64,000 nucleotides of DNA from Nanobdellota archaeon (GTDB lineage Archaea > Nanobdellota > Nanobdellia > Pacearchaeales > GW2011-AR1). The stretch covers positions 7,690 to 71,689 of the forward strand of contig JAUWPB010000002.1 of NCBI GenBank assembly GCA_030611805.1, in the 5' to 3' direction. Below, piece by piece: positions 20,802 through 41,595 of this stretch. Below the pieces are notes generated by a model that ran no database searches, was not told the DNA's origin, and saw only the letters and a list, made by a program, of their open reading frames with translations. The translations under genes and the position numbers were made by a program. Each line of letters opens with the position of its first letter. Within the stretch, counting starts at the first letter, position 1.

Positions 20802-20803
20802 AA

Positions 20804-24850: not shown

Positions 24851-24900
24851 TATTGATTTAATATAACTATCTTTATAAATATAATTTTTTTGTATTTAAG

Positions 24901-25851: not shown

Positions 25852-25967
25852 ATTCTGTGGAGTAATTTGAAATATTATCAATATTCCTCTTTTATTTTCC
25901 ATATCACATAGTTATATTTTATTACATAAATTCTTTTAAATAAATTTTTAATTAGAGAAATATTAAA

Positions 25968-27026: not shown

Positions 27027-27028
27027 AA

Positions 27029-28150
27029 ATGGAAGAAGAAAAACCAAATCAAAATTTAATACTTGATGGACATAAATTAGCCTGGCATAAGGATAGAGTT
27101 AATGCTTGGTTATCTGGAGAAAGAATAGCACCTATTACAATTGATTGTGCATTGACGAGAAAATGTAATTACAGATGTGTGTATTGTTATGGACAATTAC
27201 AAGCAAATGATGGGAAAAAAATGACTAAAGATGTGATTTTTAGATTTCTTGATGATGCAGCAGAAATAGGAGTAAAAGCCATTAGTTTTGTGAGTGATGG
27301 GGAAAGCACTTGTTCACCCCATTTATATGATGCGATAAAACATGGAAAAGAAAACGGGCTTGATATGGCTCTTGGAACAAATGGGGCTTTGTTAAAAAAC
27401 CAAAAACTTGAAGAAATGTTAAAAAATTTGACCTATCTTAGGTTTAATATCTCTGCAGGAGAATCTAAAAGATATTCTCAAATTCATGGTTGTAGAGAAA
27501 AAGATTTTTATAAAGTTAAGAATATAATTAGCGAGTGCACTAAAATAAAAAAACAAAATGATTTAGATGTAACAATTGGTTTACAAATGGTTTTAATGCC
27601 TAATTTTAAAGATCAACTCCTTCCTCTTACAAAATTAGGGAAAGAGCTTGGAGTGAATTATTTAGTTATTAAACATTGCAGTGATGATGCTTCACAAAGT
27701 TTGGGAGTAGATTACTCAAAATATTTTGATTTGATTGATATTTTAAAAGAAGCTGAATCACACGCCACAAAAAATTACTTGGTTAAAGCAAAATGGTCAA
27801 AAATATTAAGTGGAGGAAAAAGGAGTTATACAAAATGTTATGGTGCTCCATTTATGCCACAATTGTCTGGTTCTGGATTAGTTGCTCCTTGCGGCATGCT
27901 TTTTAATAGAAAATTTAAGAGATACCATATCGGGAATATAGCAGACACCTCTTTTAAAGAACTTTGGAAAAGTGATAAATATTGGGAAGTTATGAATTTT
28001 ATAGTTTCTGATAAGTTTAAATTAGAAAAAACATGTGCAACATTGTGCTTACAACACAAAGTAAATGAGTATTTGTGGGATTTGAAACAAAAGAAAATTA
28101 AGTTAAAAAATACTCTGGGAGAGTCCCCACAACATATAAATTTTATTTAA
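27029..28150 (+). CDS. radical SAM enzyme (tandem paralog B)
   Basis: 'GHKLAWHKDRVNAW' leader, 'LTRKCNYRCVYCYG' triad, 'VSDGEST'. C-terminus '..INFI'. Same layout as the upstream gene. Confidence 0.7.
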   Translation: MEEEKPNQNLILDGHKLAWHKDRVNAWLSGERIAPITIDCALTRKCNYRCVYCYGQLQANDGKKMTKDVIFRFLDDAAEIGVKAISFVSDGESTCSPHLYDAIKHGKENGLDMALGTNGALLKNQKLEEMLKNLTYLRFNISAGESKRYSQIHGCREKDFYKVKNIISECTKIKKQNDLDVTIGLQMVLMPNFKDQLLPLTKLGKELGVNYLVIKHCSDDASQSLGVDYSKYFDLIDILKEAESHATKNYLVKAKWSKILSGGKRSYTKCYGAPFMPQLSGSGLVAPCGMLFNRKFKRYHIGNIADTSFKELWKSDKYWEVMNFIVSDKFKLEKTCATLCLQHKVNEYLWDLKQKKIKLKNTLGESPQHINFI

Positions 28151-28151
28151 A

Positions 28152-28883
28152 ATGATTAGTTTACAAGAAAAAGCTAAGAAATTGAGAAGAAACACTTTAG
28201 AAATCTGTAGAGAAACAAATGATGCTCATTTGGGTTCCTCTTTTTCAGAAATAGAAATTTTAATATCTTTATATGATTCTGTATTAAAGGAAAATGATAA
28301 ATTCATTTTGAGTAAAGGACATGCTCCTTATCCATTATATCTTCTTTTAAGAGAAAGGGGCTATGATCCAAAAATAACTTCTCACCCAGACATAGATGAA
28401 AAAAATGGAATCTATTGCACAACTGGAAGTCTTGGACACGGTCTGCCAATAGCAACAGGTATGGCTCTTGCAAGGAAAATACAAAATAAACAAGGAAGAA
28501 TTTATGTTTTAATGGGAGATTGTGAGTGTTATGAAGGAACGCTTTGGGAATCTTCAAATATAACCAGACATTTTAAATTAGATAATCTCGTTTTGATAGT
28601 AGATAATAATAAATTTGGGGCCTTGGATAGTATAGAAAATATTCTTGGATTTGGAGATTTGGAAAAAACCTTTGAAGCTTTTGGATATGATGTTTCTAGA
28701 ATAAATGGGCATAATTTTCAAGAAATAATTCCTGCTTTAAAAAAAAATAGTTATGAAAAGCCAAGAGTGATTATTGCAGATACAATAAAAGGCAAGGGAG
28801 TAAGTTTTATGCAACATCCAAAATGGCATGCAAGGATGCCAACCGAAGAAGAATTTAAAATAGCTTATGATGAATTAAAATGA
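28152..28883 (+). CDS. transketolase, N-terminal (thiamine-PP-binding) subunit
   Basis: 'GHLGSSFS', 'LSKGHA', 'GSLGHGLPIATGMA', 'GDCECYEGTLWES' (the GDG..EG..WE ThDP motif). Confidence 0.8.
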   Translation: MISLQEKAKKLRRNTLEICRETNDAHLGSSFSEIEILISLYDSVLKENDKFILSKGHAPYPLYLLLRERGYDPKITSHPDIDEKNGIYCTTGSLGHGLPIATGMALARKIQNKQGRIYVLMGDCECYEGTLWESSNITRHFKLDNLVLIVDNNKFGALDSIENILGFGDLEKTFEAFGYDVSRINGHNFQEIIPALKKNSYEKPRVIIADTIKGKGVSFMQHPKWHARMPTEEEFKIAYDELK

Positions 28884-28889
28884 CTTCCT

Positions 28890-29007
28890 CCGCACACTAA
28901 AGTGCGCGGTTTCCTTCCGTCTTAAACGAACAAAACAAAATGCAGAGAAATACAAAACAAAGAACTAAATTAAGGAACGCAATTCCCCTACTAGCTAAAG
29001 CTAGTAG
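28890..29007 (+). other. two GC-containing hairpins with TAAA loops in the transketolase N/C spacer
   Basis: CCGCACAC-TAAA-GTGCGCGG (28890-28909, one mismatch) and CTACTAGC-TAAA-GCTAGTAG (28988-29007, perfect 8 bp). The local GC content is clearly above the surroundings. Confidence 0.5.
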
Positions 29008-29023
29008 TATCCTTGCTAGTTAA

Positions 29024-29500
29024 ATGAGAAAACAATTTGGAGAAACTTTATTTAAGCTGGCAAAAAAAGACCCTCTTATTTATTTGGTGGTGGGGGATAT
29101 AGGTTACGGGACATTTGACAAGTTTAAAGAAAAATTTCCAGATAGATTTTATAATATAGGTGTTTGTGAACAAAGCATGGTGGGAATAGCTGCAGGAATG
29201 GCTTTAGAAGGTCTCAAACCATGGGTTTATACTATAACACCATTTCTTATTGAAAGAGCGTTTGAGCAAATAAAAATTGATGTTGATGCCATGAAAACAA
29301 ATGTAAAACTAATTGGTTATGCTGATTACCCTCAACATGGTTTAACACATGCAGAATTAGATGCAAAAAATCTTATGGGTTTATTAAAAAATATTAGGTG
29401 CTATTTTCCAAAAAATTCAGAGGAAACTAATCAGGTCGTAAATGATTCTTATAATTTTGTGGGTCCAAATTTTATAAGTTTAAAGAAAAATTCATTGTAA
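29024..29500 (+). CDS. transketolase C-terminal-subunit homolog, pyrimidine-binding domain only (short)
   Basis: 'VGDIGYG', 'FYNIGVCEQSMVGIAAGMALEG', 'TITPFL..RAFEQI'. At 158 aa it lacks the usual C-terminal domain of ~300-aa subunits. Confidence 0.7.
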   Translation: MRKQFGETLFKLAKKDPLIYLVVGDIGYGTFDKFKEKFPDRFYNIGVCEQSMVGIAAGMALEGLKPWVYTITPFLIERAFEQIKIDVDAMKTNVKLIGYADYPQHGLTHAELDAKNLMGLLKNIRCYFPKNSEETNQVVNDSYNFVGPNFISLKKNSL

Positions 29501-29536
29501 CAACCTTTTAAAAGCCATAAATACTAAGTTAAGAAA

Positions 29537-30499
29537 ATGAACAAAATTATAAAAAATAAAAAGATAATTGCATGGGGTGTTGGCAATGCTTTTATCAATT
29601 TTGTAAGAAAATATACTTCTGTAAAAATTGAATATGCTGTGGATGATTTTACATATAATTGTGAAGTCGCCGGTACAAAAGTATATCGTCCAGAGAAATT
29701 ACTTCAGGAGAATAAAGAAGAAGTTTTTGTATTAATTTTTACTCTTTCATCTAATATTTATCAAACCATCTCCAAAAAATTACAAGAGAGAGGTTTTATT
29801 ATTAACAAACATTTTTCAGATTATTCTTTTATAATAAAAGATCAATTTGCTTCTGAAATGCGTCAATATGGAATTGAATTAAAGGATGAATGGTATTCGG
29901 TAGTTAAAAGCTTATTTTCTAATTTAACTATCCCAAATCATTCTTCTTTGTTAGGTACTTGGCTTATATATGGACTTCTTTTTAAAAGTAAAAATATTTC
30001 GGGGGATATTGTTGAATTGGGTGTTTACAAAGGGGGGAATGCGTTTTGTTCTGCCTTGTTTATAAATCTTATGGGAGATAAAAGAAAACAAATTTTAGTG
30101 GATAGTTTTGAGGGTTTTGGAAAGTTATCTGAACATGATCCTGTAGAACATAAAAATTTATTCAAAGATGTTTCTTATGAAGAAGTATCTAACTATTTTT
30201 CTGATTTTAATAATACACAAATTCTTAAAGGGCATATACCAAAAATATTGAATTCACTTCACAATAAAAATTATTCTTTTGTTTATTATGACTGTGATCT
30301 TTATGAGCCAACATTAGATTCATTAAATTATTTTTTTCCAAAAATATCTGAGGGGGGTTTTTTTTTAATTGATGATTATTGTGTTACAAAAGATTTTTTG
30401 GGTGTTCAAAAAGCAGTCAAACAATTTTGTAAGGAGCATAAACTTGATATAATAGAAATCCCTGAAACAACTCAAGGTCTCATCATAAAAAAGAAGTAA
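29537..30499 (+). CDS. TylF/MycF-like SAM-dependent (O-)methyltransferase with extra N-terminal Rossmann-like domain
   Basis: 'GDIVELGVYKGGNA' and 'YYDCDLYEPTLDSLNYFFPKISEGGFFLIDDY', as in the macrocin-O-methyltransferase family. Confidence 0.7.
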   Translation: MNKIIKNKKIIAWGVGNAFINFVRKYTSVKIEYAVDDFTYNCEVAGTKVYRPEKLLQENKEEVFVLIFTLSSNIYQTISKKLQERGFIINKHFSDYSFIIKDQFASEMRQYGIELKDEWYSVVKSLFSNLTIPNHSSLLGTWLIYGLLFKSKNISGDIVELGVYKGGNAFCSALFINLMGDKRKQILVDSFEGFGKLSEHDPVEHKNLFKDVSYEEVSNYFSDFNNTQILKGHIPKILNSLHNKNYSFVYYDCDLYEPTLDSLNYFFPKISEGGFFLIDDYCVTKDFLGVQKAVKQFCKEHKLDIIEIPETTQGLIIKKK

Positions 30500-30511
30500 T
30501 TTCAAAATAAA

Positions 30512-31516
30512 ATGTACTCAGAAAAACCAAAATTATATGCACGAGAAAAGTTGTATAATAAATTAGAGCTTAAATCCATCAGCCTTGATGTTACATCAAG
30601 ATGCAATATGGAGTGTTCTCATTGTTATGCTAAAACATTTGCAAAGGTTGAACCAATTGGACTTGACATATTAAAGAAAGCTTTGGATGAATTATATGAA
30701 ATGGGGGTTTTCCATTATATTTTACAAGGAGGGGAAGCAATTACAGACCCAGAGAGATTAGAAGCAATAATTAATATGATTTACCCAGATGAAACATATA
30801 TTAATATTTCATCTAATGGTTGGGATATGACTTATGATAAAATACTCTGGTTAAAAAAATTAAAAGTGGATAAGATTTCTTTTAGCCTTGATTCTGGCAT
30901 TGAAAAAGAACATGATACAAATAGATTATCAGGCTCATTTAGAAGAACACTTAAAGCTATTGATAATGTTATAAAAGAAGGTTTAGATGTCTCATTTCAA
31001 ACCACTATTACACATGATTCTTTAAAGTCTGATGGTTTTAAAAAAGCTTATGAGTTTGCAAGGAAAAAGGGGATTAGAATGGAGGCCCAAATAGCTGAAC
31101 CTGTTGGAGCGTGGGATGGAAGAAAAGATTTATTAATTACTTCGGAAGATGCAAGGTTCATAAAAGAATTGTGTTTGAATTCTCCCAAAACAAGAGATGG
31201 AAGAGAAATGGTGAAAAGGGATTTATACAGGGGCGATGAAGATTATTGTCCTGCTGGCAAGGAATTTATGGCAATAGCATCAAATGGAGAATTTCTTCCT
31301 TGTAATTTTCTGCAGTTTAGTTTAGGAAATATAAAAAATAAATCAATAAAGGAAATGAGGGATGCACTATTGACAAATAAGTGGTTTAATAAAAAATACG
31401 CTCATTGTCTTGTTGGAGAAAATGAAGAATTTATTAATAGCCATGTAATGCCTTATGTAAGGGAACAAAAACCCCTTAATGCAAACAAAATATTTAAATT
31501 GGAGGAAAAAGAATGA
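30512..31516 (+). CDS. radical SAM enzyme
   Basis: 'DVTSRCNMECSHCYA', 'ILQGGEAITDP'. C-terminal 'CPAGKEF..NGEFLPCNF' (partial SPASM/twitch-like). Confidence 0.7.
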   Translation: MYSEKPKLYAREKLYNKLELKSISLDVTSRCNMECSHCYAKTFAKVEPIGLDILKKALDELYEMGVFHYILQGGEAITDPERLEAIINMIYPDETYINISSNGWDMTYDKILWLKKLKVDKISFSLDSGIEKEHDTNRLSGSFRRTLKAIDNVIKEGLDVSFQTTITHDSLKSDGFKKAYEFARKKGIRMEAQIAEPVGAWDGRKDLLITSEDARFIKELCLNSPKTRDGREMVKRDLYRGDEDYCPAGKEFMAIASNGEFLPCNFLQFSLGNIKNKSIKEMRDALLTNKWFNKKYAHCLVGENEEFINSHVMPYVREQKPLNANKIFKLEEKE

Positions 31517-32277
31517 AAAAAGAATTTGATGGTTTTAAAAAAACAGGTATTGATAATCAAATTGAGAGTAAGATAGAAAAACATTGTAAAAACTATAATA
31601 TTAATCCTTTGAATGCTATAAAACTATTTCCTGTACTTGCACGTCGTCAACTACTTAAAAGATTTCTTGCACATACAGAATTATTTAAAAGAACATTAGA
31701 TATTCCAGGGGATATTGTGGAATTAGGTGTTTTTAGGGGAGGGGACTTGATGACTTGGGCAAATTTACTAGAAGTATATAGTATTGGGAATCGCACTAAA
31801 ATTGTATATGGATTTGATAATTGGGAGGGATTTACTAAATTATCTCCTGAAGATGGCAAAGTTGATAATTCTGTCCAAAAAAAGGTTGGAGGTTATTCTC
31901 CAGCAAATTATTTTGAAGAATTAAAATCAGCCATTAAAATTTATGATGAAGATAGATTTATTCCTTGGAAAGATCGTGTGAAATTAATTAAAGGAAATAT
32001 TGAAGAAACTGCACATACATTTATTAAAGAAAATCCTGGAGTAAGATTCTCATTAGTTCATTGTGATTGTGATTTATATGAACCAACAAAAGCCGCATTA
32101 GAATGTTTTTGGCCACATTTATCTCGTGGAGGGATTATGTTATTTGATGAATATGCACTACATGAGTGGTCAGGGGAAACAAAGGCTGTTGATGAATATT
32201 TTGCAGATAAACCAAATATAAAGATTAAAACTCTAACTTGGACTAATGCTCCTGCAGCTTATATTATAAAAGAATAA
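31513..32277 (+). CDS. TylF/MycF-like SAM-dependent methyltransferase
   Basis: 'GDIVELGVFRGGD' and 'HCDCDLYEPTKAALECFWPHLSRGGIMLFDEY'. ATGA overlap with the upstream stop. Confidence 0.75.
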   Translation: MKKEFDGFKKTGIDNQIESKIEKHCKNYNINPLNAIKLFPVLARRQLLKRFLAHTELFKRTLDIPGDIVELGVFRGGDLMTWANLLEVYSIGNRTKIVYGFDNWEGFTKLSPEDGKVDNSVQKKVGGYSPANYFEELKSAIKIYDEDRFIPWKDRVKLIKGNIEETAHTFIKENPGVRFSLVHCDCDLYEPTKAALECFWPHLSRGGIMLFDEYALHEWSGETKAVDEYFADKPNIKIKTLTWTNAPAAYIIKE

Positions 32278-32364
32278 AAGATTTAAAATGAATGGCTCTT
32301 TTAAATGGAAAGGTATCAAAATAAAAAATGTTAAAACTAACAAACCTCAGGTTAAGGAGAAGTA

Positions 32365-32760
32365 ATGAAAAAAGCATCAAAAATTATTTTAATTAATCCT
32401 AAAAAAGAAATTTTATTGTATTTAAGAGATAATAAACCGACAATATCACACCCTGATTATTGGGATTTTATTGGGGGAGAGGGGGAAAAAGGAGAAACTT
32501 CTTTACAAACGATTCAAAGAGAAATAAAAGAAGAGATAAATTCTAGAGTCAGCGAAATTAAAATTTTGAATAGTGAAATATATAACCCTTTAAATACAAA
32601 TGTAACTTTTTTCAAAGGGAAAATTAATGAAAATATAGAAAACATTAATTTAACAGAAGGGCAAAAATTAGGATTTTTTAAATTATTAAATTTACCTTCA
32701 AAATTCCCTTTCTTTTATAGAGATTTTATTCATAAAAATAAACATAAGATCTTTGATTAA
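32365..32760 (+). CDS. Nudix hydrolase
   Basis: Nudix box 'GGEGEKGETSLQTIQREIKEEI' (GX5EX7REUXEE). Confidence 0.7.
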   Translation: MKKASKIILINPKKEILLYLRDNKPTISHPDYWDFIGGEGEKGETSLQTIQREIKEEINSRVSEIKILNSEIYNPLNTNVTFFKGKINENIENINLTEGQKLGFFKLLNLPSKFPFFYRDFIHKNKHKIFD

Positions 32761-32814
32761 AATATATTTTTTTGTATAGCAATTATTTTAAACTGAATAT
32801 TTATCATACTTTCT

Positions 32815-33702
32815 ATGGGCAAAGAGATAAAAATCCCAGACACATATAAGTACATATCTGCATTTTTAACAATGAGATGTAATCTTAATTGCAGTTTTTG
32901 TTTAAATGCTTTTGATAAAAATTTTAACAGAAAAAGTTTTGAAGAAATTTCTGGGGAGCAATGGGTTGAAGCATTAAATAAAATAGAATCAAGGTCTGAT
33001 GTCCCAATTACTCTCACTGGAGGAGAGCCTTCATTACATAAAGATTTTATTTATATTATAAATAATCTAAAACCAGAACTCAATATAGACTTCTTAACAA
33101 ATCTTTCTTGGGGGAAAAAAGGTTTGGAGAAGTTTATTTTAAAAGTTGATCCGAATAGAATTAAAAGAGATGCGCCTTATGCTTCTATCCGTGTTTCTTA
33201 CCATCCAGAACAGATGGGGAATGGAATCAAACTTGCTGAAAATGCGAAAAAATTGCAGGATGCAGGTTTTAGTATTGGAATATGGTCTGTCTTATATCCA
33301 AGTCAACAACAATTGTCTGCAATTAACCAGATGCAATTTGTATGCAAGGACGCGAAAATTGATTTCAGAATTAAAGAATTTACAGGAGAATATAAAGGAG
33401 AGATATATGGAAATTATTCTAAATTTCCTGGCTCGGCCTTTAATTCTAAAGAGACCTTACAAGGGATGTGTAAAACAACAGAACTATTAATGGGCCCATG
33501 TGGTGATGTTTATAGATGTCATAGGGATGCGTTTGCAGGAGAGAATCCTGTTGGAAACATAACTTCTCCATACTTTAAAATCAAAGATATTTTTAGACCT
33601 TGTGATAAATACGGACAGTGCCATCCATGTGATGTTAAAGTCAAAACAAATTATAAACAAGAATTAGGACATACAAGTGTTGAAATAAAAAATGTTAAAT
33701 AA
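32815..33702 (+). CDS. radical SAM enzyme
   Basis: 'LTMRCNLNCSFCLN', 'TLTGGEPSLH'. Cys-rich C-terminus 'CGDVYRCH..CDKYGQCHPCD'. Confidence 0.7.
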   Translation: MGKEIKIPDTYKYISAFLTMRCNLNCSFCLNAFDKNFNRKSFEEISGEQWVEALNKIESRSDVPITLTGGEPSLHKDFIYIINNLKPELNIDFLTNLSWGKKGLEKFILKVDPNRIKRDAPYASIRVSYHPEQMGNGIKLAENAKKLQDAGFSIGIWSVLYPSQQQLSAINQMQFVCKDAKIDFRIKEFTGEYKGEIYGNYSKFPGSAFNSKETLQGMCKTTELLMGPCGDVYRCHRDAFAGENPVGNITSPYFKIKDIFRPCDKYGQCHPCDVKVKTNYKQELGHTSVEIKNVK

Positions 33703-34849
33703 AAAACAAATTGTTTTTGTAGAATCTTTTTTTAATGTGCCCACTTTTAACATGGCCTATGCACTAAAAAAAACAAAAAAATATGAAACTGTTTTAATTT
33801 TACTTGCTAAACATGATAAAAAAATATTTGAAAAAGCTTTTGATAAAATCTTTATTTTTGATTTAAAATTTAATCTTACTCCAAAAGGATTGATTAATTT
33901 TTTTAAAAAAATAAAAAGTAAAGAAGGAAAAAAATTTCTTGCAAAAATAAAAAAAATTAATCCTCATGTTTTCCAGATAACTGGTCCTGACTTAGTTACT
34001 TTATGGTTCATGCATTTTTTAAAGAAGAAAGTAAAAGTATACTATGCTTATGATATATGGAAGTTTTATGACAAAAAATTCTCCTTTAAAAAAAATTCAG
34101 GAATAATGCAATTTTTTCATAAATATACTGAAAGAATTTGCTTTAAAATGGCAGACGGAATTTTGCATAAATGTTCTCCAAAAATGATTAATTTATTAAA
34201 ATTAAAGAGTAAAACCCCAGAACTATCTTTTTTACCATGTTGTTTGGATGAATGGAATTATTCTATAAAAGAAAAGCGAAAAAATAAAGAATTGCATATA
34301 GTCTATGCTGGGAGATTTTGGGATAAATGGAAAGGTCATATTTCTTTTCCTAAAATAATTAAAGATATAATTTCCCAAAAAATTCATTTTCATATCTATG
34401 ATTTATTGACAAAAGAATTTAAAGAAAATCTTAAAAATATAAATAAAAAATATTTACATTTGCATAAATTAGTATCTATAGATAAATTAAATAAGGAAAT
34501 TTCAAAATATGATTATGGGTATTGTATGGATTTCACAGATGATTCAATAGTAAATCCCTTATGGAGGAAAGCGGGCATAGCAAATAAATTATTTAGTTAT
34601 ATTGGGGCAGGACTACCGACTATAGCGAATGAACAACTAGAATATATAGCTAAAATAGTTCGGGATAATAATATTGGAATTACAATAAAAGATTTTAAAG
34701 ACCTAAAAAACCTAAGAAAAATTCTTGAAAAACAAAATTATGGGCAATTACAAAAAAATGTCAGAAAAGCCCAGGAGAAATTTAAATTGAGCAAGAATAT
34801 AGAAAAATTAGAAAGATTTTATGAGAAAGTTGTTGAGATGAAAAGGTGA
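33692..34849 (+). CDS. putative GT-B glycosyltransferase (GT4/GT1-like)
   Basis: Two-lobed size. 'LHIVYAGRF' starts the C-lobe and 'NKLFSYIGAGLPTIANE' follows. Motifs are weaker than in the other GT4 genes. Confidence 0.45.
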   Translation: MLNKKQIVFVESFFNVPTFNMAYALKKTKKYETVLILLAKHDKKIFEKAFDKIFIFDLKFNLTPKGLINFFKKIKSKEGKKFLAKIKKINPHVFQITGPDLVTLWFMHFLKKKVKVYYAYDIWKFYDKKFSFKKNSGIMQFFHKYTERICFKMADGILHKCSPKMINLLKLKSKTPELSFLPCCLDEWNYSIKEKRKNKELHIVYAGRFWDKWKGHISFPKIIKDIISQKIHFHIYDLLTKEFKENLKNINKKYLHLHKLVSIDKLNKEISKYDYGYCMDFTDDSIVNPLWRKAGIANKLFSYIGAGLPTIANEQLEYIAKIVRDNNIGITIKDFKDLKNLRKILEKQNYGQLQKNVRKAQEKFKLSKNIEKLERFYEKVVEMKR

Positions 34850-35105
34850 GTATAATAAAACTTGGTTTTTCTTGGATTATTTTTTTAAAAAGTAATTCTT
34901 TGATATTTTTTGGTCCATAATCCAATCTTTTTTTCTTTAAATCAAAAAAGATTGTTTTTTTAAATGATTTTCCGATTGGGAGACACCAATTTTGATATCC
35001 ATCGCCATCTTTATTTTCACAGTCCCAAAAACAAAACATAATTTTCTTATTTTTAAGTTTCTTCTCTAATTCTTTTAAATTAAGATCTTTAGATTCTTTA
35101 TTCAT
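34782..35105 (-). pseudogene. possible N-terminal remnant of a CgeB-like/GT-B protein
   Basis: 'KIMFCFWDCENKDGDGYQNWCLPIGKSF..FFDLKKK..DYGP..' resembles only the first ~85 aa of GT-B proteins. The last ~22 codons run antisense into the 3' end of 33692-34849. Confidence 0.25.
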
Positions 35106-35197
35106 TTTAAATGTTAATTATTTTGCATATTAAAAAAACTTTTTAATTTTATCTATAGTCAAACATCATCTTTTAAAAGCATCATAAAATTTAAAAA

Positions 35198-35704
35198 TTA
35201 TTTTACCACTTTTAACTCTACATCAATCTTTGAAAGAAAACCATTTATAAATAAAGATAATTTTTCTCTGACATATTTAGGAAAAAATTTACCCGCAATA
35301 GTTGGGGTTATTTTTAATTTAATTATTTCGAATTCCTTTTTTAAATTTATTTTATTTACTTGCTTTTCTAAATGTATAAAACAATCTTCATTAAAAAAAC
35401 GTTTATGTTCCAAGCTAGAGTAAGCTCCTTTATTTGTATAGTGGGGAACAACTATTCTTATAATTCCGTTATCTTTTGCAATTCGCCATAATTCTTGAAC
35501 TACTTTATCTGGTTCTTTTAAATGTTCCAAAACATTATCTGTATAAATATAATCATAAGTATTATCTTTAATAGGATATGGAAATATATTAAAATCAAAA
35601 CTCTTTGTAACCTTCTTATCTTTTTGTATATCTACATTATCCCATCCTTCTCTTATATCATCCCCACATCCTAAATTGAGTTTTTTAATTTTCTTTTTTA
35701 CCAT
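35198..35704 (-). CDS. class I SAM-dependent methyltransferase (type 11-like, short)
   Basis: 'LNLGCGDD', 'TDNVLEHLKEP', 'IVVPHY'. Paralog of 22878-23360. Confidence 0.7.
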   Translation of the reverse strand: MVKKKIKKLNLGCGDDIREGWDNVDIQKDKKVTKSFDFNIFPYPIKDNTYDYIYTDNVLEHLKEPDKVVQELWRIAKDNGIIRIVVPHYTNKGAYSSLEHKRFFNEDCFIHLEKQVNKINLKKEFEIIKLKITPTIAGKFFPKYVREKLSLFINGFLSKIDVELKVVK

Positions 35705-35763
35705 TTTGTTTGTACTAGATTATATCTCCTATCTTGAATTAATCTTAAAGATATTTATAAAGA

Positions 35764-37320
35764 TTATTGTGGATAAATTTTCCTCTTGATACTTCTTAAA
35801 ATCATAAAATCATTTTTATCAAGACATTTAGTAAGAAATATTAAAAGGGTGTAAGATGTAATAAATAAAAAAGTTAATAATATTATACTTATTATGTTAA
35901 TAATGACTAATTCTCTGGCACAAATTAATAACAGCAAAGGGATAATTGAAATTGCTCCTATCTTAATCATCTTTCTTCTTAGGGGAATAAAAGAAAAATA
36001 ATGTTTTGTTTGGAATGCAAAGAGAATATTAAGAGAAATATATGAAATCATTGTTGCTATTGCTGCCCCATTTATTCCAAGACTATTTTCTATAAAAAAG
36101 ATTTGTTTCATAGGAATCAAAAGATAATTTAAAATTATATTCACAAGGGCTATAAAAAACAAGTCTTTTAAGAGGAGTCTTGATTTTCCTGCCACCAAAA
36201 TTAATTTAGAAGAGATTATAAATATTGAAGAAACGAATGCTCCTATTGCAAGGATTCGCAATGAATTTTCAGCAGCCAAATAATTCCCTCCAAATAAAAT
36301 GTTTATAAAAACTCCTGGAAACAAAATTAAAAATATAAAAATAGGGAGGTTAATCATAAATATCCATTTTACAATTTGCTTGCTTGTTTCCTGGATAGTT
36401 TTAAAATTTTTTGCTGAATATTGTTTAATAATCAACGGGAAAAATAAAGTTATAAACAATGAAGGGGCAATTAATAGAAGGAGTGCTATTGGAACGGCAG
36501 CATTATACAAACCAACTTCAAATACACTTTTTAAATATCCTATAAAAAAAGAATCTGTCCAGTAAAAAATATTCCCAATTAGCCCTACAAACATAATTGG
36601 CCAGGAATATGAAAGAATTTTATTTTTTATTTTAACTGCTTCTTGTTCTTTTAATTTATATTTCTTAAAAATCTCTGGAAAACCATATTTACACAATAAA
36701 AAAGATGTTATTAAAACAATTAAAAATCCTAAAACATAAGAAAAAATAATTGCACTAGTTTTAAATCCCAAAACAAGAAGAAAAATAAGAGATATTACCT
36801 TAATAGCATTTAACAAAATATTATCTATAAAAGAGTACCAGGAAATCTTTTCAAATGCTCTTATGACTGAAAGGAAAATATTTGAAATGACATATAGAGG
36901 GATAACAAAACTAAAAATCTTGAGGAAAATTATTAAATCTGTATTATGAAAAAAGTTTATTGAAATAAACTCTGAAAAAAAGAAGAGGATAATTCCGGAA
37001 ATCATGCTTAAGAAAAATGAAATTGTTAAGGAAAATTTAAACAGATATCTTATTTTTTGTCTTTCTTTTTTTCCCCGATAAAGAGAGATATATCTTAAAA
37101 GTCCTTCTGACAAACCCAAGGAAGAAAAAGCTACAAAAAAACCCAAAATCATTATTGCCAAAGAAAATAAACCATATACTTCCGGACCAAAATTCCTTGC
37201 AATTATTATTCTATAAACATAGTTAAAAATCTTAGCAAAAAAAATCCCTGCAAAAACAATAATGGAAGATTTGGCTAATAGTTTCAAATCTTTATCAATT
37301 TCTTTTTGTTCGTTTTTCAT
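35764..37320 (-). CDS. Wzx/RfbX-type oligosaccharide flippase (MOP superfamily)
   Basis: About 14 hydrophobic segments. N-terminus 'LLAKSSIIVFAGIFFAKIFNYVYRIIIARNFGPEVYGLFSLA' is typical of polysaccharide-biosynthesis flippases. Confidence 0.75.
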   Translation of the reverse strand: MKNEQKEIDKDLKLLAKSSIIVFAGIFFAKIFNYVYRIIIARNFGPEVYGLFSLAIMILGFFVAFSSLGLSEGLLRYISLYRGKKERQKIRYLFKFSLTISFFLSMISGIILFFFSEFISINFFHNTDLIIFLKIFSFVIPLYVISNIFLSVIRAFEKISWYSFIDNILLNAIKVISLIFLLVLGFKTSAIIFSYVLGFLIVLITSFLLCKYGFPEIFKKYKLKEQEAVKIKNKILSYSWPIMFVGLIGNIFYWTDSFFIGYLKSVFEVGLYNAAVPIALLLLIAPSLFITLFFPLIIKQYSAKNFKTIQETSKQIVKWIFMINLPIFIFLILFPGVFINILFGGNYLAAENSLRILAIGAFVSSIFIISSKLILVAGKSRLLLKDLFFIALVNIILNYLLIPMKQIFFIENSLGINGAAIATMISYISLNILFAFQTKHYFSFIPLRRKMIKIGAISIIPLLLLICARELVIINIISIILLTFLFITSYTLLIFLTKCLDKNDFMILRSIKRKIYPQ

Positions 37321-37369
37321 CTAAATAATAAAAATAAAGGGCTTTTAAACTTTCATTAAGTGTCCTCTA

Positions 37370-37426
37370 TTCACTCAAAAACCTTCAACTTCTTAAACTT
37401 TATAAAATCATATATCAGAGAAAATT
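37370..37426. repeat. 57-bp direct repeat, copy A
   Basis: TTCACTCAAAAACCTTCAACTTCTTAAACTTTATAAAATCATATATCAGAGAAAATT is identical to 38682-38738. The flanking bases differ on both sides. Confidence 0.95.
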
Positions 37427-37496
37427 AAAAATATTCACTTAAAAGATTTCTAATACTAAAAATAAAAAAAACATTTTTAATTATATAGGAAGGTCA

Positions 37497-38243
37497 TTAT
37501 TTTTGTTTAATATTAAGAGGGGTCTTCCAAACCACAAGATTAAGTTTGACAAATTTCTTTGCAATTGATTTTGGAATAAAGATTTTTAAAAATGATTTAA
37601 GTTTTGGGCGGAAAATAACAAAATTATGTAAATTATTTAAAATTTTAGATTTTGGTTTATAACTTTTCCCACGAAGAGGAAAATCTTCTTTGCCATCATA
37701 TTTACATTTTAAAAATTTAAGGACTCTTTGATAAACTTTTTTTGTATTTTTTGTAAAATCTTTAAAGTCTATTAATAAAATCTGATTAGACGGAAAAACT
37801 TTCTTAAATCTATCAATATTAATTTTATGATTATATATCTCCCAATAAAGCACATCATCCCGTATATCTCCCCTTAGAAGAAGGGTTTTAAAAAGAGAAA
37901 GAAGCCCTTCATTAGGGTCTCTTACCATGATGATTATTTTTGCTTTTGGATTAAATTTATATAATTTTTTAGGAGCATTTGGAGAAGAGATATACCATGG
38001 AGTAGATTCCCCAATTATTCTTTCATTTTTTACATCTTTAAATAATTTTTGATACTCTTTCAATGTTTTTACAACTTGTGTTGATTTAAAATCTGAAAAA
38101 AATCCTGGTTCTTTTAATTCAGACATAAAAATTTCTAGATGTTCCCCCAAATAATTATGTAAACTTGTTGTTCCTGACCTTTGGGGCCCCACAATAAATA
38201 AATTTGGTTTTTTCATTTTTAATACTTTAAAAGATTTTTTCAT
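37497..38243 (-). CDS. PAPS-dependent sulfotransferase
   Basis: 5'-PSB-like 'FIVGPQRSGTTSL' and 'IIIMVRDP' (3'-PB region). Confidence 0.75.
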   Translation of the reverse strand: MKKSFKVLKMKKPNLFIVGPQRSGTTSLHNYLGEHLEIFMSELKEPGFFSDFKSTQVVKTLKEYQKLFKDVKNERIIGESTPWYISSPNAPKKLYKFNPKAKIIIMVRDPNEGLLSLFKTLLLRGDIRDDVLYWEIYNHKINIDRFKKVFPSNQILLIDFKDFTKNTKKVYQRVLKFLKCKYDGKEDFPLRGKSYKPKSKILNNLHNFVIFRPKLKSFLKIFIPKSIAKKFVKLNLVVWKTPLNIKQK

Positions 38244-38246
38244 CTT

Positions 38247-38681
38247 TTAAATGTTCTCCTTGTTTAAAAAGATTTTTATTAATTCTACGCTTTTATCCAA
38301 AGATATTGTGTCATTGTCAACCATTAAAGAATAATTTTTTGGTTCTTCATAAAAATGCCCTTCTCTTTTCTCCAATGTTTTTTTAAGATATATCCATTTT
38401 GGATTACAAATTTTATCTACTTCATTTCTAATTTCCACCGTAGGAGCAATAACAGAAACAATTACATTTGTCTGTTTTGACAAGATTTTTGCTAATCTTG
38501 CTACTCGCAAATTGTGCTCCATTCTATCTTGTCTTGAAAAGCCTGTATTCAAAGAAATACTTTCCCTCATTTCATCTCCATCTAAAACAACGGCATTAAA
38601 CTCTTTTCTTAAACCATACGCTAAAGATGTTTTTCCTGATTCACTCTGCCCAGTTAACCAAATTATTTTATTTTTTTCCAT
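38247..38681 (-). CDS. cysC: adenylyl-sulfate (APS) kinase, short form
   Basis: 'IIWLTGQSESGKTSLA', 'VLDGDEMRE', 'GFSRQDRMEHNLRVARLAKIL'. The ATG at 38681 directly abuts repeat copy B; the track start at 38690 is TTG. Confidence 0.8.
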   Translation of the reverse strand: MEKNKIIWLTGQSESGKTSLAYGLRKEFNAVVLDGDEMRESISLNTGFSRQDRMEHNLRVARLAKILSKQTNVIVSVIAPTVEIRNEVDKICNPKWIYLKKTLEKREGHFYEEPKNYSLMVDNDTISLDKSVELIKIFLNKENI

Positions 38682-38738
38682 TTCACTCAAAAACCTTCAA
38701 CTTCTTAAACTTTATAAAATCATATATCAGAGAAAATT
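38682..38738. repeat. 57-bp direct repeat, copy B (contains the last 17 sense codons and the stop codon of 38683-39138)
   Basis: Identical to 37370-37426. On the minus strand it also contains TTTTATAAAG about 29 nt upstream of the APS-kinase ATG. Confidence 0.95.
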
Positions 38739-39138
38739 TATCTATTCTGTCCCAATCAATTGTTTGGTCAACTGAATCCAAAAGCAAATGAAATGCAACT
38801 CCTATGAAAATAAAGAAAAAATATTTTGAAAAAAAACTAAATAAAAATAAAATTATCAAAACCTCTATTCCATGTAAAAAATAAAAACCACGATAAAATC
38901 CATTTCTTTGTTTTCTGGGCAAAGAGAGAAATATTTTTTTATTTTTGGTAAACCAGTTATAAGCATTTTTTAAGCTTAAATCTTTTTTCTTATAAACAGA
39001 ATATAAATAATGGTCAACATCAATTAAAAAACTTGATAAAAAAACTATGAAAAATCCAATTAAACCTATTTGTGGAAATAAGAAAAACAAAGAGGCTGAA
39101 AAAATAATTCCAAAAATTATGTGTTGTTTTGGGTACAT
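38683..39138 (-). CDS. small membrane protein, DUF457/YdjM-like putative metal-dependent hydrolase
   Basis: Four hydrophobic helices with 'IDVDHYL' and 'LHG..' His/Asp positions. Confidence 0.45.
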   Translation of the reverse strand: MYPKQHIIFGIIFSASLFFLFPQIGLIGFFIVFLSSFLIDVDHYLYSVYKKKDLSLKNAYNWFTKNKKIFLSLPRKQRNGFYRGFYFLHGIEVLIILFLFSFFSKYFFFIFIGVAFHLLLDSVDQTIDWDRIDKFSLIYDFIKFKKLKVFE

Positions 39139-39199: not shown

Positions 39200-40723
39200 T
39201 CATTCCTCAATTCTTTTTATCATATCTGTGAAAGCAGGTCTTGTAATTAAAACCCCTGCAGTAATTCCTATGATTGTTGTGATTGCAAATCCTTTTAACA
39301 AACCTGCGCCTGCCCACATTAAAGGAAGCAATGCAACAACTGCTGTGAAATATGCCCCCAAAATAATTGTAAATGCTCTTTTCATTCTTTGTTTGATACT
39401 TAAGAAAGTGCTTTGCCTTGCCTCGTCTAAAATAATAATCTGCTGGTCTATTCCTGTGCCTATTGTCGCTAAAATCCCTGCAATACTCGGCAGGTCAATA
39501 TTCCATTCTATAAAAGATGCAATTCCCAAAATTATGATTACTTCAGAAACACTTGTAATTAACAAAGCAATTGAAGATTTGAATTTTTTATATCTAAAGA
39601 AAATAATTATTGAAACTGCGAGAAGTGCGACCAAACCTGCCAGTAAAATTGACTTGATAAATTCTTTCCCAAGTATCGGAGAGATTGTATCTAATTTAAC
39701 TATCTCTAATTTATATGGAAGACTTCCGGTAATTAAAATTGTCTGAAGTTTATTCATTGACTCTTCTGCAAAATCATATGCTTCTTCCTGGGTTTTTCCG
39801 TTTTCAGAACCTGAGATTGCTATTTGTGTTGTTACTCTTCCTTTAAGCCCTTCTCCAATTAAAAGACTATCAACAAGAATGTCATCTACATACAGATTTA
39901 ATTTTTCAGAAAGATAATCCCCCTGAGAAGTTGAATTTACATCAAGTTTATCTGTTATTTCTGCGTGTTGTTTTGCAGCATCCTCGCTTAAATAAATTGT
40001 AAATCTAAACTTGCAAAAATATCCTGTTTCAGATTTCTGACAAGTTTCTATTCCTGCACAAGTTGCATCATTCCTGCAAACAGAAGCAATATCTTTTTCC
40101 CCCCCAACAAACACGGTCTCATTTCCTATCCTTGCTTCAAACTTTCCTTGTTCAGAAATTAATTCTTTCAAATCTTTTGGTGTTGCCCCTGCAATTTCAA
40201 TTAACATAAAATGGTTTCCGGTCATATCTAAAACAGGGCGAATTTTCATATCTGCAATTCCATAAACATTTAATCTATTGGTTATCACATCAACTAAATC
40301 ATTTATTTCTGAAGACGTCAGTTTTTTCCCCTGTGCCTGGACCAACGCTCTTGAGCCACCTGCTAAATCCAAACCCATTTTAATATTTGTCTTTGGTATT
40401 TCTGATACAGTTATATTTGGGGCGTAGTTTGAGAATAAAATTATTTCAAAATCTTTTGTCTTGAAAATAGTTTTTACATCTTCATTAGAATTAAATTTTC
40501 CTTTCATAACATTTGAAAAATCCTCTATAGTTGTTATTTTTTGTGAATCAATTTCTGTAATTATCTGACCCTGCCTTAGTCCTTGCTCAAATGCTGTTGA
40601 ATTTGATTCAACACTTGTAACTAAAACTCCTTTTTGAAAAAAGGTGGGAGGCAATCCAAAAATAGACAGCAAAGACAAGGACACTATAATTATCAAAAGC
40701 CATATTTTCCAGCTTAATTTCAT
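39200..40723 (-). CDS. secD: protein-export membrane protein SecD
   Basis: N-terminal TM helix, large periplasmic-type domain, and a C-terminal 6-TM block 'GLDLAGGS..', 'ILGIASF..PSIAGILATIGTGIDQQI'. The ATG at 40723 makes an ATGA overlap with the secF stop. Confidence 0.8.
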   Translation of the reverse strand: MKLSWKIWLLIIIVSLSLLSIFGLPPTFFQKGVLVTSVESNSTAFEQGLRQGQIITEIDSQKITTIEDFSNVMKGKFNSNEDVKTIFKTKDFEIILFSNYAPNITVSEIPKTNIKMGLDLAGGSRALVQAQGKKLTSSEINDLVDVITNRLNVYGIADMKIRPVLDMTGNHFMLIEIAGATPKDLKELISEQGKFEARIGNETVFVGGEKDIASVCRNDATCAGIETCQKSETGYFCKFRFTIYLSEDAAKQHAEITDKLDVNSTSQGDYLSEKLNLYVDDILVDSLLIGEGLKGRVTTQIAISGSENGKTQEEAYDFAEESMNKLQTILITGSLPYKLEIVKLDTISPILGKEFIKSILLAGLVALLAVSIIIFFRYKKFKSSIALLITSVSEVIIILGIASFIEWNIDLPSIAGILATIGTGIDQQIIILDEARQSTFLSIKQRMKRAFTIILGAYFTAVVALLPLMWAGAGLLKGFAITTIIGITAGVLITRPAFTDMIKRIEE

Positions 40724-41595
40724 CCTCTCTTCTCCACATACCATTTAAGTATTGAAACATTAGTTATCCATGTATTGAGAAGGTCAAACCCCAACCCAAT
40801 AATTAGTATTGTAAAAATTTGGCTTAGAACTACTGAAAAAGATTTCACGACGATTAAAGCAAACGCCACAGCCAATATAGAAGTTAAAGTCATTGTCATC
40901 CCTGTTTTAAATGCTCCTAAAATTCTTTGGTTTAACGAACCTTCTTTTCTCTTTAAGATTCTTGTTGTGAGCAAGATATCTGTGTCTACTGAATAACCAA
41001 TTAACATTAAAAACGCAATAATGCCTGCACTTGACATTTTCATCCCCAAGAGATTCACAAAAACAAGAGTCATCAAAATATCTGCGAAAACAGCAAGGAT
41101 AACTGCAAGAGAAGGGATAAATGTCCGAAAAATAATAAAGACAACTATTGCCATAAAAATAAAAGCAAACAAAATTGCGATTAAAAGCTGCCTGTAAAAA
41201 CTCTCGCTTAAAGCAGAACCAGTAAATTCAAAACTGCTATTTTCTGTATTTAATTCATAGCCAAGATAATCTTCTAAAATTTGTTTTATCTCTTCTCCTG
41301 AAGATTTTGTTTCAATAATTACTGCTTTTTGCTCTCTTGTGATTAAATCATATATTTTTCTTGTATTAACCTCTTCTAATTTTTCCGAAAGTGCCTGCTC
41401 TAAATCTGTTATATCAATCTCTCCATAAATTGTTACAGAAGTTCCTCCTGTCAAAGAAATGTCTTTGTAAATAAAATCCTGGTTATTAGAATAAAATATT
41501 CCCATGTAAACTAAAGAAAAAAGCACGAGTGAAATTGGAATTAGCAAGAGTAATTTGTAATACTTGTCGTGCCAGTTTTTTTGTTGTGTTTCCAT
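40720..41595 (-). CDS. secF: protein-export membrane protein SecF
   Basis: 'SAGIIAFLMLIGYSVDTDILLTTRILKR' and the 6-TM layout typical of SecF. Confidence 0.8.
   Translation of the reverse strand: METQQKNWHDKYYKLLLLIPISLVLFSLVYMGIFYSNNQDFIYKDISLTGGTSVTIYGEIDITDLEQALSEKLEEVNTRKIYDLITREQKAVIIETKSSGEEIKQILEDYLGYELNTENSSFEFTGSALSESFYRQLLIAILFAFIFMAIVVFIIFRTFIPSLAVILAVFADILMTLVFVNLLGMKMSSAGIIAFLMLIGYSVDTDILLTTRILKRKEGSLNQRILGAFKTGMTMTLTSILAVAFALIVVKSFSVVLSQIFTILIIGLGFDLLNTWITNVSILKWYVEKRG

Follow-up and report, generated by a model that had tools for sequence, protein, structure and literature searches.

In an uncultivated DPANN archaeon of the Pacearchaeota/Woesearchaeota/Nanoarchaeota kind, two adjacent genes at the border of a surface-glycan island lie between identical copies of a 57-nt sequence. 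Two histories may explain this arrangement. The genes could have arrived recently by att-like, site-specific insertion, as an earlier reading of the DNA (the sequence-only reading) proposed. Alternatively, the insertion may be old, and its repeats may have been made identical again by gene conversion.

An exact repeat pair around two genes

Two exact copies of the 57-mer TTCACTCAAAAACCTTCAACTTCTTAAACTTTATAAAATCATATATCAGAGAAAATT are present in the window (the whole 64-kb stretch of DNA that we analyzed), at 37370-37426 (copy A) and 38682-38738 (copy B), with a period of 1312. No third copy is present in the window with up to three mismatches allowed, a second copy of a 57-mer arose in 0 of 100 shuffles, and the pair is the only long perfect dispersed direct repeat of the window. 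On both the left and the right, the bases next to the 57-mer are unlike between the copies. Relative to a minus-strand open reading frame (ORF) at 38683-39138, copy B comprises 1 nt past the stop, the TGA itself, the final 17 codons, and 2 nt of the codon before them; the ATG of a kinase gene, at 38681, directly adjoins it. The locus is organized as follows.

1..37320, no strand assigned: hypervariable glycan-biosynthesis island of at least 37 kb, continuing past the window start (Pfam and poor collinearity)
35764..37320, minus: MOP/Polysacc_synt flippase gene, the island's first gene in empty-site genomes (profile matches)
37321..37369, minus: native intergenic sequence from the orphan membrane-gene copy to the flippase, conserved in empty-site relatives
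37370..37426, minus: repeat copy A, an orphaned 3' remnant of a second, decayed membrane-protein gene (identity to copy B, 100%)
37427..37496, minus: spacer from the sulfotransferase stop to copy A, homologous to part of the spacer in a relative (L005)
37497..38243, minus: sulfotransferase gene, cargo gene 2, 248 aa (Pfam Sulfotransfer_3/_1)
38247..38681, minus: short APS-kinase-like gene, cargo gene 1, 144 aa from the ATG at 38681 (Pfam APS_kinase)
38682..38738, minus: repeat copy B, the 3' end of the live membrane-protein gene (exact repeat match)
38683..39138, minus: conserved membrane-protein gene, 151 aa, the anchor at the island's left border (homologues in related loci)
39200-40744, minus: SecD (Pfam), conserved core flank (39200..41595)
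40720-41595, minus: SecF (Pfam), same conserved core flank

A Logan contig (k = 31) from run SRR12623521 is identical to the window. Its 1315 bp consist of 1255 unique cassette bases plus 30 nt (k - 1) of repeat at each end. Since this identical contig stops within the repeat, both copies and all four junctions are present in the raw data. The sequence-only reading had described the repeats accurately: their positions and period are confirmed in the window and in this contig, their boundaries are sharp, and the content of copy B and the abutting ATG agree with a sequence check.

The insert encodes a putative sulfation module

The kinase and sulfotransferase genes are the only ORFs within the 1255-bp insert, which, as previously claimed, contains no recombinase gene. 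The kinase scores 69.8 bits against Pfam PF01583 (APS_kinase; cut-off, 21.1), with a match to the CysC family profile that takes in the P-loop and the downstream conserved region, and lies below the NCBIfam equivalog cut-offs (75 vs 138.7 bits). Among solved structures, its closest match is the APS kinase of Methanothermococcus thermolithotrophicus (8a8h; E = 4e-17), to which residues 4-106 align, covering GQSESGKT, LDGD, and FSRQDR; the kinase is ~20 residues shorter than this enzyme. Between the window and L005, its dN/dS is 0.25. The sulfotransferase matches Sulfotransfer_3 (65 bits) and Sulfotransfer_1 (49.7 bits), including the 5'-phosphosulfate and 3'-phosphate binding regions that characterize PAPS-dependent enzymes. 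The solved structures nearest to it are 3rnl and those of the heparan sulfate 3-O-sulfotransferases, and the alignment to 3rnl spans GPQRSGTTSL and VRDPNEG. These profile scores uphold the earlier assignment of both genes, and together with the solved relatives they make a PAPS-dependent sulfation module plausible. As predicted from its sequence, the module would probably add sulfate to the surface glycan.

In this regard, the pair resembles known PAPS-dependent carbohydrate sulfation modules, which combine a CysC-type kinase with a sulfotransferase in bacterial polysaccharide and Nod-factor loci: the Pfam families are the same, the closest structures are an archaeal APS kinase and carbohydrate sulfotransferases, and the setting is a glycan locus. 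Unlike in those modules, the kinase here is short and below the equivalog cut-offs, the function is predicted, and no ATP sulfurylase was found among the ORFs scanned in the 64-kb window (all those of at least 130-150 aa and those around the cassette). The pair is also rare. Among 5.8 billion protein clusters, only two relatives of the sulfotransferase exceed 50% identity, and the cassette was not found there beyond the window strain and L005.

The motif TTTTATAAAG, a putative TATA box according to the sequence-only reading, lies on the minus strand with its 3' end 29 nt before the kinase ATG. It falls within the conserved codons D-F-I-K-F of the membrane gene, and it is degenerate in the orphan copy upstream of the L005 flippase. 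Because the kinase starts 1 nt past the upstream stop codon, the arrangement would fit co-transcription of the kinase with the membrane gene.

The insert marks the border of a variable glycan island

Close relatives have an empty site. In L002 (ENA) and L003 (Logan, SRR12623520), whose flanks are 95-99.8% identical to the window, the membrane gene is followed by 50 nt and the flippase, with one copy of the 57-mer region; L007 likewise has a single copy and no insert. The L002/L003 junction aligns with the left flank of copy B joined to the right flank of copy A. Compared with L002, the window flank is 99.8% identical over 4.8 kb and 94.9% identical up to base 38682, where left-flank homology stops exactly; homology returns at 37426, at only 69%. 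The two genes are therefore supported as an insertion relative to close relatives, as had been proposed.

The flippase itself is 69% identical to that of L002 at the DNA level, against 95-99.8% for the other flank. Beyond it, the island encodes glycosyltransferases, many radical-SAM/B12/SPASM enzymes, methyltransferases, and NDP-sugar enzymes (Pfam), with little collinearity with L002 or L004. SecF, SecD, and the 151-aa membrane protein form its left border, and its content varies among close relatives. The membrane gene is preceded directly by SecD in 88 of 123 related loci, whereas what follows it varies, with the flippase adjacent in only 30 of 127. In another lineage (L169), a third, unrelated gene begins 1 nt past the same membrane-gene stop codon. 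Divergence increases toward this border: identity to L002 falls from 99.8% at 45-50 kb to about 95% and then to 92-94% in the last 450 nt, and dS rises from 0.15 in SecD to 0.24 in the membrane gene. The locus thus combines conserved flanks, differing content, and more divergent border genes, as flexible glycan islands do, and the stop codon of the membrane gene is the island's left border.

The membrane protein itself is weakly YdjM-like, under the Pfam cut-off. No record was returned for the membrane protein, flippase, or SecD of the window in exact-protein look-ups, and the membrane gene is probably cut at the repeat in Logan k = 31 contigs. A conserved intergenic 26-mer gave 0 matches in pattern scans of GTDB genomes and JGI metagenomes; thus, the window's species is absent from those scanned.

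A probable old insertion with duplication of a whole gene

Only two cassette-bearing sequences were found, the window strain and L005, a 2-kb contig from SRR22936148 on which the live membrane gene is missing its 5' end. Window and L005 are collinear, at 83.5% identity, through the membrane gene, kinase, sulfotransferase, spacer, orphan, and flippase. L005 carries the same two genes at the same junctions, a module that is missing from close relatives. Copy A is orthologous to a diverged orphan at about 1646-1701 of L005, in agreement with the earlier view that it is an orphan of the membrane gene's 3' end. In addition, the 37 nt upstream of the orphan are common to both, indicating the same junction.

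The cassette has diverged together with its flanks between the two loci, at a dS of about 0.3 (kinase, 0.32; sulfotransferase, 0.27; membrane gene, 0.42). The repeats of L005 differ at 14 of 57 positions, and those of the window at 0 of 57. Given the co-divergence of cassette and flanks, the perfect identity of the window repeats requires gene conversion. The left-flank tree places the window with the empty-site L002 and not with the cassette-bearing L005, so that an extra loss or an island swap must be invoked.

What was duplicated is best preserved in L005. Its spacer matches the membrane gene's upstream region and first 33 nt (local score, 65-77; shuffle maximum, 45; 0/1000 shuffles). The stretch after the module in L005 is, accordingly, what remains of a second membrane gene: its upstream region, 33 nt of its 5' end, and its final ~57 nt. 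A whole gene was thus duplicated, in a unit of at least about 484 nt, and has since decayed. The window spacer has by now no significant similarity to the membrane gene, and the 5' remnant seen in the L005 spacer has been deleted in the window. Deletion by AATT microhomology would be a candidate origin of the left border of the 57-mer, with the preceding spacer derived from gene positions ~80-113; in a comparison with the membrane gene, however, the middle of this spacer resembled no part of it significantly (p = 0.08-0.7).

Signs of gene conversion between the copies

Only three sites of the window repeat are derived, and all three are also derived in the L005 orphan, which has 9 such sites (hypergeometric P = 0.0036); all other copies of the gene read CTTGTGTATGA. 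From this pattern we infer that the live gene received a patch, repeat positions 11-14, from the orphan. Aside from these positions, the window repeat resembles the gene and not the orphan, and this account has to assume that conversion took place several times or ran both ways. Conversion over the full 57-nt homology to its very edges, as the sequences would imply, would be unusual.

Other insertions at the anchor gene

One further insertion with a duplication was found at this junction. In L045, which belongs to an unrelated lineage, DNA self-comparison detected an RmlD-family gene accompanied by a 112-nt duplication, 96% identical, that reaches 13 nt into the next gene; the related L151 and L051 lack the inserted gene. 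A protein-level search for second copies in 80 related loci found none. Overall, only 2 independent insertion events are seen at the anchor in about 145 lineages. An orphan 3' fragment lies downstream of the inserted module in the window (copy A), in L005, and in L045, as in 3'-end displacement. Candidate junction microhomologies, AATT in the window and AAAAAAG in L045, are indistinguishable from chance given the AT-rich sequence and the decayed spacer.

Two kinds of mobile DNA can be set aside. The 57-mer contains no hairpin, folding no better than shuffled sequences (z = +1.4), and no integron integrase was found in the window; an integron gene cassette was rejected. Target-site duplications of transposons and insertion sequences typically measure 2-15 bp. 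Here, 57 nt are duplicated (at least 484 nt in the original event), no inverted repeats occur at the insert ends, and no transposase is present, so that such an insertion was also rejected.

A model for the origin of the repeats, and its rivals

We consider it probable that the locus reflects an old insertion with duplication of the whole anchor gene, decay of one copy, and re-homogenization of the remainder by gene conversion. A single old event would have put the module in place, leaving two whole membrane genes and their upstream region (at least about 484 nt). We infer the mechanism of this founding event from its end products alone; the most likely route would be recombination, either illegitimate or homologous and one-sided, with the conserved gene as its anchor, as island variants were exchanged. 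The logic would be that of rhs and T6SS loci, in which 3'-end displacement leaves orphaned 3' fragments behind. The redundant downstream copy would then have decayed by deletion, until the window lineage retained only its last 57 nt. Identity would have been restored by conversion, in which this fragment and the live gene's 3' end were partners, with at least one patch (repeat positions 11-14) moving from orphan to live gene and changing the otherwise conserved SLVYDF to SLIYDF. The sharp repeat borders would be the ends of the remaining homology: on one side a junction internal to the pseudogene, and on the other the position 1 nt past the stop, where island variants diverge.

One rival is the explanation with which we began, now in the form of a non-autonomous mobile cassette whose recombinase is encoded elsewhere, with the 3' end of the membrane gene as its att site and the 57-mers as attL and attR. 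Such elements are classically recognized by repeats equal to the end of a target gene, together with one-copy empty sites in relatives, and both were found. In addition, another gene with a long duplication occupies the same junction in a second lineage (L045), and a tyrosine recombinase gene lies 17 kb away (55706-56542), although it is the nearest one and no integrase lies within or next to the element. Yet the diverged repeats and 5' remnant of L005 indicate that the duplicated unit was the whole gene rather than an att core. Since the L045 duplication has different boundaries (112 nt, with 13 nt in the next gene), the two insertions share no core. The 57-mer has neither inverted repeats nor a hairpin. 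Co-diverged cassette and flanks at the same locus in the only two carriers indicate vertical inheritance; the cassette is absent elsewhere in 5.8 billion protein clusters, and only two independent events were seen in about 145 lineages. We therefore regard this explanation as decidedly improbable, and the recent att-like insertion favored by the sequence-only reading is not supported: given the pseudogene remnant in L005, the repeat ends so sharply because a decayed fragment stops there on one side and the conserved anchor gene on the other. That reading had also named, as evidence against itself, a fixed structure with diverged repeats. This is borne out in part: diverged repeats do exist, in L005, but the arrangement is polymorphic rather than fixed.

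Recent loss and re-entry could bring about near-identical repeats without classical gene conversion, if the old cassette, excised as a circle through recombination of its diverged repeats, or DNA taken up from a cassette-bearing cell, entered an empty-site genome of the window's population by a single crossover. Such Campbell-type integration yields direct repeats that are exactly the shared homology. Cassette-bearing and empty-site genomes occur in the neighboring runs SRR12623521 and SRR12623520, and the left flank is nearest to the empty-site L002 while the cassette is shared with the more distant L005, which fits import into an L002-like background. However, a single crossover between non-identical repeats produces two reciprocal hybrids, not identical copies, so that mismatch correction, itself a form of conversion, would still be required; and the junction upstream of copy A is the same as in L005, which means that the structure was inherited or imported whole. 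Nor was a circular form observed. On balance, this route seems unlikely. There is, finally, only a slight chance that the arrangement is an assembly artifact, in which the chromosomal site is empty and a cassette from another molecule or strain sharing the 57-mer was threaded in as a loop. In a k = 31 graph, X-R-Y-R-Z looks the same as X-R-Z with an additional circle R-Y, and the repeat is where the Logan unitig ends. Moreover, 57 nt is barely above 55, the largest default k of one widely used metagenome assembler. Default k values of assemblers are 21/33/55, 21-141 in MEGAHIT steps, and 31; to our knowledge, 57 is no default k of the common assemblers, and it is neither the k-mer nor the k - 1 length of those listed. 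The L005 contig, from another sample and with diverged repeats, runs unbroken from membrane gene to flippase, showing that the integrated order is real in a relative, and the window's spacer/copy A junction is orthologous to it. In addition, 8 positions separate the window 57-mer from its counterpart in the known empty-site strain. The artifact, which the sequence-only reading had named as a possible refutation, is rejected on the L005 contig and the k-mer arithmetic.

An old insertion, re-homogenized by conversion, carries several implications. At this locus, the growth of a surface-glycan island in an uncultivated DPANN archaeon can be followed to the base, through addition of a rare sulfation pair at a conserved anchor. 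In the proposed account, conversion between a pseudogene fragment and a live gene rewrote the last codons of the latter. It also calls for caution, in that perfect, sharp direct repeats around a cargo need not mean recent or site-specific insertion. The identical repeats are a present substrate for clean loss of the module through recombination. If the sulfation is real, strains of a host-attached, virus-exposed organism would differ at their cell surface. One could go further and propose that a regular, recombinase-independent route adds genes at this anchor, duplicating tens to hundreds of bases, and that re-homogenized repeats keep the module reversibly excisable and re-insertable, making glycan sulfation switchable or shareable in the population; we find this rather hard to credit.

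Relationship to known systems

Integrative elements that use gene 3' ends, usually of tRNA genes, leave attL and attR repeats of tens of bases that equal the target's 3' end, keep the target intact, and have empty sites in relatives, and in these respects our locus is alike. It is unlike them in that the insert is a two-gene cargo with no integrase in or next to it, a whole gene with its upstream region was duplicated, there is no common core, and inheritance was vertical.

Cell-surface glycan islands (O-antigen, capsule, and glycosylation) of the replacement or additive flexible type are exchanged via homologous recombination in conserved flanking genes (PMC4033161). Similarly, SecF, SecD, and the membrane gene flank a large glycan cluster that differs among genomes otherwise 95-99.8% identical, and the gene pair is one further presence/absence difference at its border. 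The present case differs in that it concerns DPANN archaea and in its base-exact border, 1 nt past a stop codon. It also left a duplicated anchor gene, and simple double-crossover replacement gives none.

In rhs, CDI, and T6SS effector-immunity loci, displacement of 3' (C-terminal) ends, with orphaned 3' fragments, has been attributed to homology-facilitated illegitimate recombination (PMC5361080 and references in it). Unlike in those loci, no toxin or immunity function is involved here, the displaced piece was originally a whole gene rather than a variable tip, the re-homogenized orphan is an extra feature, and the mechanism is read from structure. The likeness is nevertheless close in outline: a module sits next to a conserved upstream gene, the former 3' part has been pushed downstream and persists as a homologous orphan, and the homology between orphan and live gene can later drive recombination between the copies.

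The putative sulfation cassette lies between two exact repeats at a site that is empty in relatives

A 57-mer occurs in two exact copies in the window, copy A (37370-37426) and copy B (38682-38738), with a period of 1312 bp. It is the sole long perfect dispersed direct repeat of the 64 kb; no third copy was found in this stretch even allowing three mismatches, and none is expected by chance. Copy B consists of the end of a membrane-protein gene plus one base, with the kinase ATG directly next to it.

Features around the two copies
40720-41595, minus: SecF
39200-40744, minus: SecD
38683-39138, minus: membrane protein, 151 aa, weakly YdjM-like
38247-38681, minus: APS-kinase-like protein, 144 aa
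37497-38243, minus: sulfotransferase, 248 aa
between sulfotransferase and copy A, minus: spacer, 70 nt
between copy A and flippase, minus: intergenic stretch, 49 nt
35764-37320, minus: MOP-family flippase

An independent assembly of run SRR12623521 provided a Logan contig of 1315 bp that is identical to the window and comprises 1255 unique cassette bases flanked on either side by exactly 30 bases (k-1) of the repeat. Both repeat copies and all four junctions are therefore present in the raw reads, and the exact duplication described in the sequence-only reading is confirmed.

The alignment of the kinase to 8a8h, the APS kinase of Methanothermococcus thermolithotrophicus, takes in the P-loop, LDGD, and FSRQDR regions. 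The window's kinase is short and scores under the NCBIfam equivalog cut-offs. The sulfotransferase aligns to 3rnl and to heparan sulfate 3-O-sulfotransferases, both PAPS-binding regions included. No ATP sulfurylase was found among the scanned window ORFs (all those of at least 130-150 aa and the ORFs around the cassette). Only 1 nt separates the membrane-gene stop codon from the kinase ATG, which suggests co-transcription of these genes. Many of the closest kinase homologues (~60-66% identical) are ~245-250 aa long and have the APS-kinase domain fused to a cytidylyltransferase-like domain (PF01467). These apparently uncharacterised fusions may represent a compact two-step nucleotide-sugar or sulfate-activating enzyme.

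The membrane protein has its closest relative, at 91% identity, on ENA contig L002 and Logan contig L003 (SRR12623520), both of which have the order SecF-SecD-membrane gene-50 nt-flippase and lack the kinase and the sulfotransferase. Aligned with this empty site, the window left of copy B matches its left side, and the window right of copy A matches its right side. The window matches L002 at 99.8% identity along a 4.8-kb segment and at 94.9% as far as base 38682, the end of the alignment; from 37426 the match restarts with only 69% identity through the flippase, beyond which the L002 island has no collinearity to the window. A further relative, L007, also has an empty site. Given these alleles and their matching flanks, the cassette is an insertion, as had been proposed.

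The cassette is old, and the orphan copy is a gene remnant

In a set of 5.8 billion protein clusters, only two relatives of the sulfotransferase exceed 50% identity, and one relative of the kinase exceeds 66%. On L005, a Logan contig of 2 kb that stems from another study, a 73%-identical sulfotransferase and an 88%-identical kinase occur together, and collinearity with the window extends from the membrane gene through kinase, sulfotransferase, spacer, and orphan to the flippase (83.5% DNA identity). The 37 nt directly upstream of the orphan are common to both, indicating the same junction and one common event. When the window is compared with L005, synonymous divergence (dS) has a similar magnitude in the kinase (0.32), sulfotransferase (0.27), and membrane-protein (0.42) genes, a pattern compatible with vertical co-inheritance of cassette and membrane gene; dN/dS values of 0.25 for the kinase and 0.57 for the sulfotransferase fit purifying selection on the former and weaker constraint on the latter. 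The cassette is old: L005 has the same junctions, and its repeat copies differ at 14 of 57 positions, which does not agree with a recent att-type insertion.

The L005 spacer contains ~28 nt of the membrane-gene upstream region followed by the gene's first 33 nt (ATGTACCCAAAACAACACTTAATTTTTGCAATT), with local alignment scores of 65-77 against a maximum of 45 in 1000 shuffles. This 5′ remnant implies that at least ~484 nt, the whole gene together with its upstream region, were duplicated in the founding event. The interior of the downstream copy would later have been lost; the window lacks the 5′ remnant too, and the 57-nt tail alone is recognisable there. The orphan is a membrane-gene remnant and not an att core.

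Probable gene conversion in the window

The L005 copies differ at 14 positions and the window copies at none. With a dS of ~0.3 between the lineages, several substitutions would be expected in an unconstrained 57-nt fragment, and we infer that the window copies became identical through gene conversion. The sequence GTGTATGA (conserved SLVYDF) is present in every gene copy examined (L002, L004, L005, L007, and L008), and CTTGTGTATGA is present in four of these five; CTGATATATGA occurs only in the window's two copies, and the L005 orphan has TTAATATATTG. Each of the window's three derived sites falls on a derived site of the L005 orphan, which has 9 such sites among 53 comparable positions (hypergeometric P = 0.0036), so at least this patch appears to have been copied from the pseudogene fragment into the live gene. 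Since the rest of the window repeat is gene-like, conversion probably ran in both directions. The sharp repeat borders are the limits of remaining homology. The putative TATA box of the repeat lies within conserved codons and is degenerate in the L005 orphan.

The membrane gene borders a variable glycan island

From base 1 to the flippase, the window carries a glycan-biosynthesis cluster of glycosyltransferases, radical-SAM/B12/SPASM enzymes, methyltransferases, and NDP-sugar enzymes. Its radical-SAM load is unusually large, with 14 ORFs matching Radical_SAM in 1-34849, of which six have a B12-binding domain and six a SPASM domain. Split transketolase-like genes and TylF-type methyltransferases lie in the same interval, and this enzyme set suggests heavily modified sugars.

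In a survey of GTDB genomes and JGI metagenomes that covered 160 related loci, 88 of 123 informative loci have SecD as the immediate upstream neighbour of the membrane gene. The flippase is the next gene downstream in only 30 of 127, sits farther away on that side in 31, and went undetected in 66. In L169, a close relative (92% DNA identity in the membrane gene), an unrelated 298-aa gene begins one base past the stop codon. This downstream variation indicates that island variants diverge exactly at the repeat end.

DNA self-comparison of 141 loci gave one other strong duplicate, an independent case, in L045, in which an RmlD-family gene lies between membrane gene and flippase. It is flanked by a 112-nt duplication (96% identical) comprising the last 91 nt of the membrane gene, an 8-nt spacer, and a 13-nt start shared by insert and flippase; its ~87% identical relatives L151 and L051 lack the inserted gene. 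The L045 borders are unlike the window's, and thus there is no common core.

The L169 gene (no Pfam match) starts with ATGGAA one base after the stop, as the kinase does (L169 689-700 versus window 38676-38685), and the L045 insert and flippase have their first 13 nt in common. Such shared first codons among unrelated genes may reflect microhomology junctions or chance. In L051 (~6395-6500), the last ~40 nt of the membrane gene have a diverged tandem duplicate without cargo: an atypical tail (SLIFDFVKKINEKF) immediately precedes the canonical one (SLVYDFIKLRT*) in diverged form. Between them lies TTTCTTTA, a direct repeat of 8 nt, at the codon position where the window 57-mer starts. An earlier insertion at this hotspot, since lost, may have left this scar.

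Other features of the window

All homologues of the membrane protein belong to MAGs of Pacearchaeota, Woesearchaeota, or Nanoarchaeota, and the window also encodes Cdc6/Orc1, the PolD small subunit, archaeal RNA polymerase subunits, and four tRNAs, two of them tRNA-Leu. In the intervals 53125-53296 (plus) and 42130-42291 (minus), each tRNA-Leu gene is followed by the same conserved ~45-nt sequence (GATTCTCACCCTACGGGTTTCCCACAAGGGGATGACCTCT). The T-arm and acceptor 3′ end of the tRNA then recur in a second, diverged copy at a distance of 76-78 nt, which could be an att remnant, an unrecognised intron/3′-end arrangement, or a small RNA. The interval 55069-56542 (minus), ~2 kb from tRNA-Leu(caa), holds a gene for a tyrosine recombinase (278 aa, Phage_integrase) next to one with HNH and Recombinase domains; the former may encode XerA or belong to an integrated element, and we found no link between it and the 57-mer. 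An ABC-transporter ATPase gene (43588-45792, plus) contains an intein of ~510 aa with a LAGLIDADG homing-endonuclease domain (insert at ~43735-45264). The 99.8% identical L002 has this gene without the intein (225 aa), a case of very closely related genomes that differ in the presence of an intein. At 60201-60284, ~400 nt upstream of cdc6/orc1 (60687-61928), a 21-nt unit (ATAATATATATAATAAGTGTA) is repeated three times in tandem; these may be replication-origin repeats.

Origin of the cassette

The perfect repeats with sharp borders had been read as the mark of a site-specific element. Such an element is unlikely, given that the insert holds only kinase and sulfotransferase and, as previously stated, no recombinase gene, that the repeat has no hairpin and no shared core, and that no mobility was seen. 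An assembly artefact is also unlikely because L005 runs through the whole structure. What survives of the sequence-only reading is the observation and the insertion, and not the recent, att-like interpretation. For this old, recurrent kind of insertion polymorphism at an island border, we favor recombination that used the conserved gene as its anchor and had an illegitimate second junction. A kinase- and sulfotransferase-first island variant would have been joined to a flippase-first variant, pushing a second anchor copy downstream. Microhomology was sought at the founding-event junctions and was not demonstrated. The event is of an ordinary kind, an indel at a flexible glycan island border; the instructive twist is that the decayed anchor-gene duplicate would have been re-homogenised by gene conversion.

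Divergence from L002 climbs toward the border. Such a rise has been described for replacement glycan islands (PMC4033161), which the window border resembles. The logic of the proposed origin is that put forward for the orphaned 3′ fragments in rhs and T6SS loci (PMC5361080), to which we liken the mechanism read here from structure.
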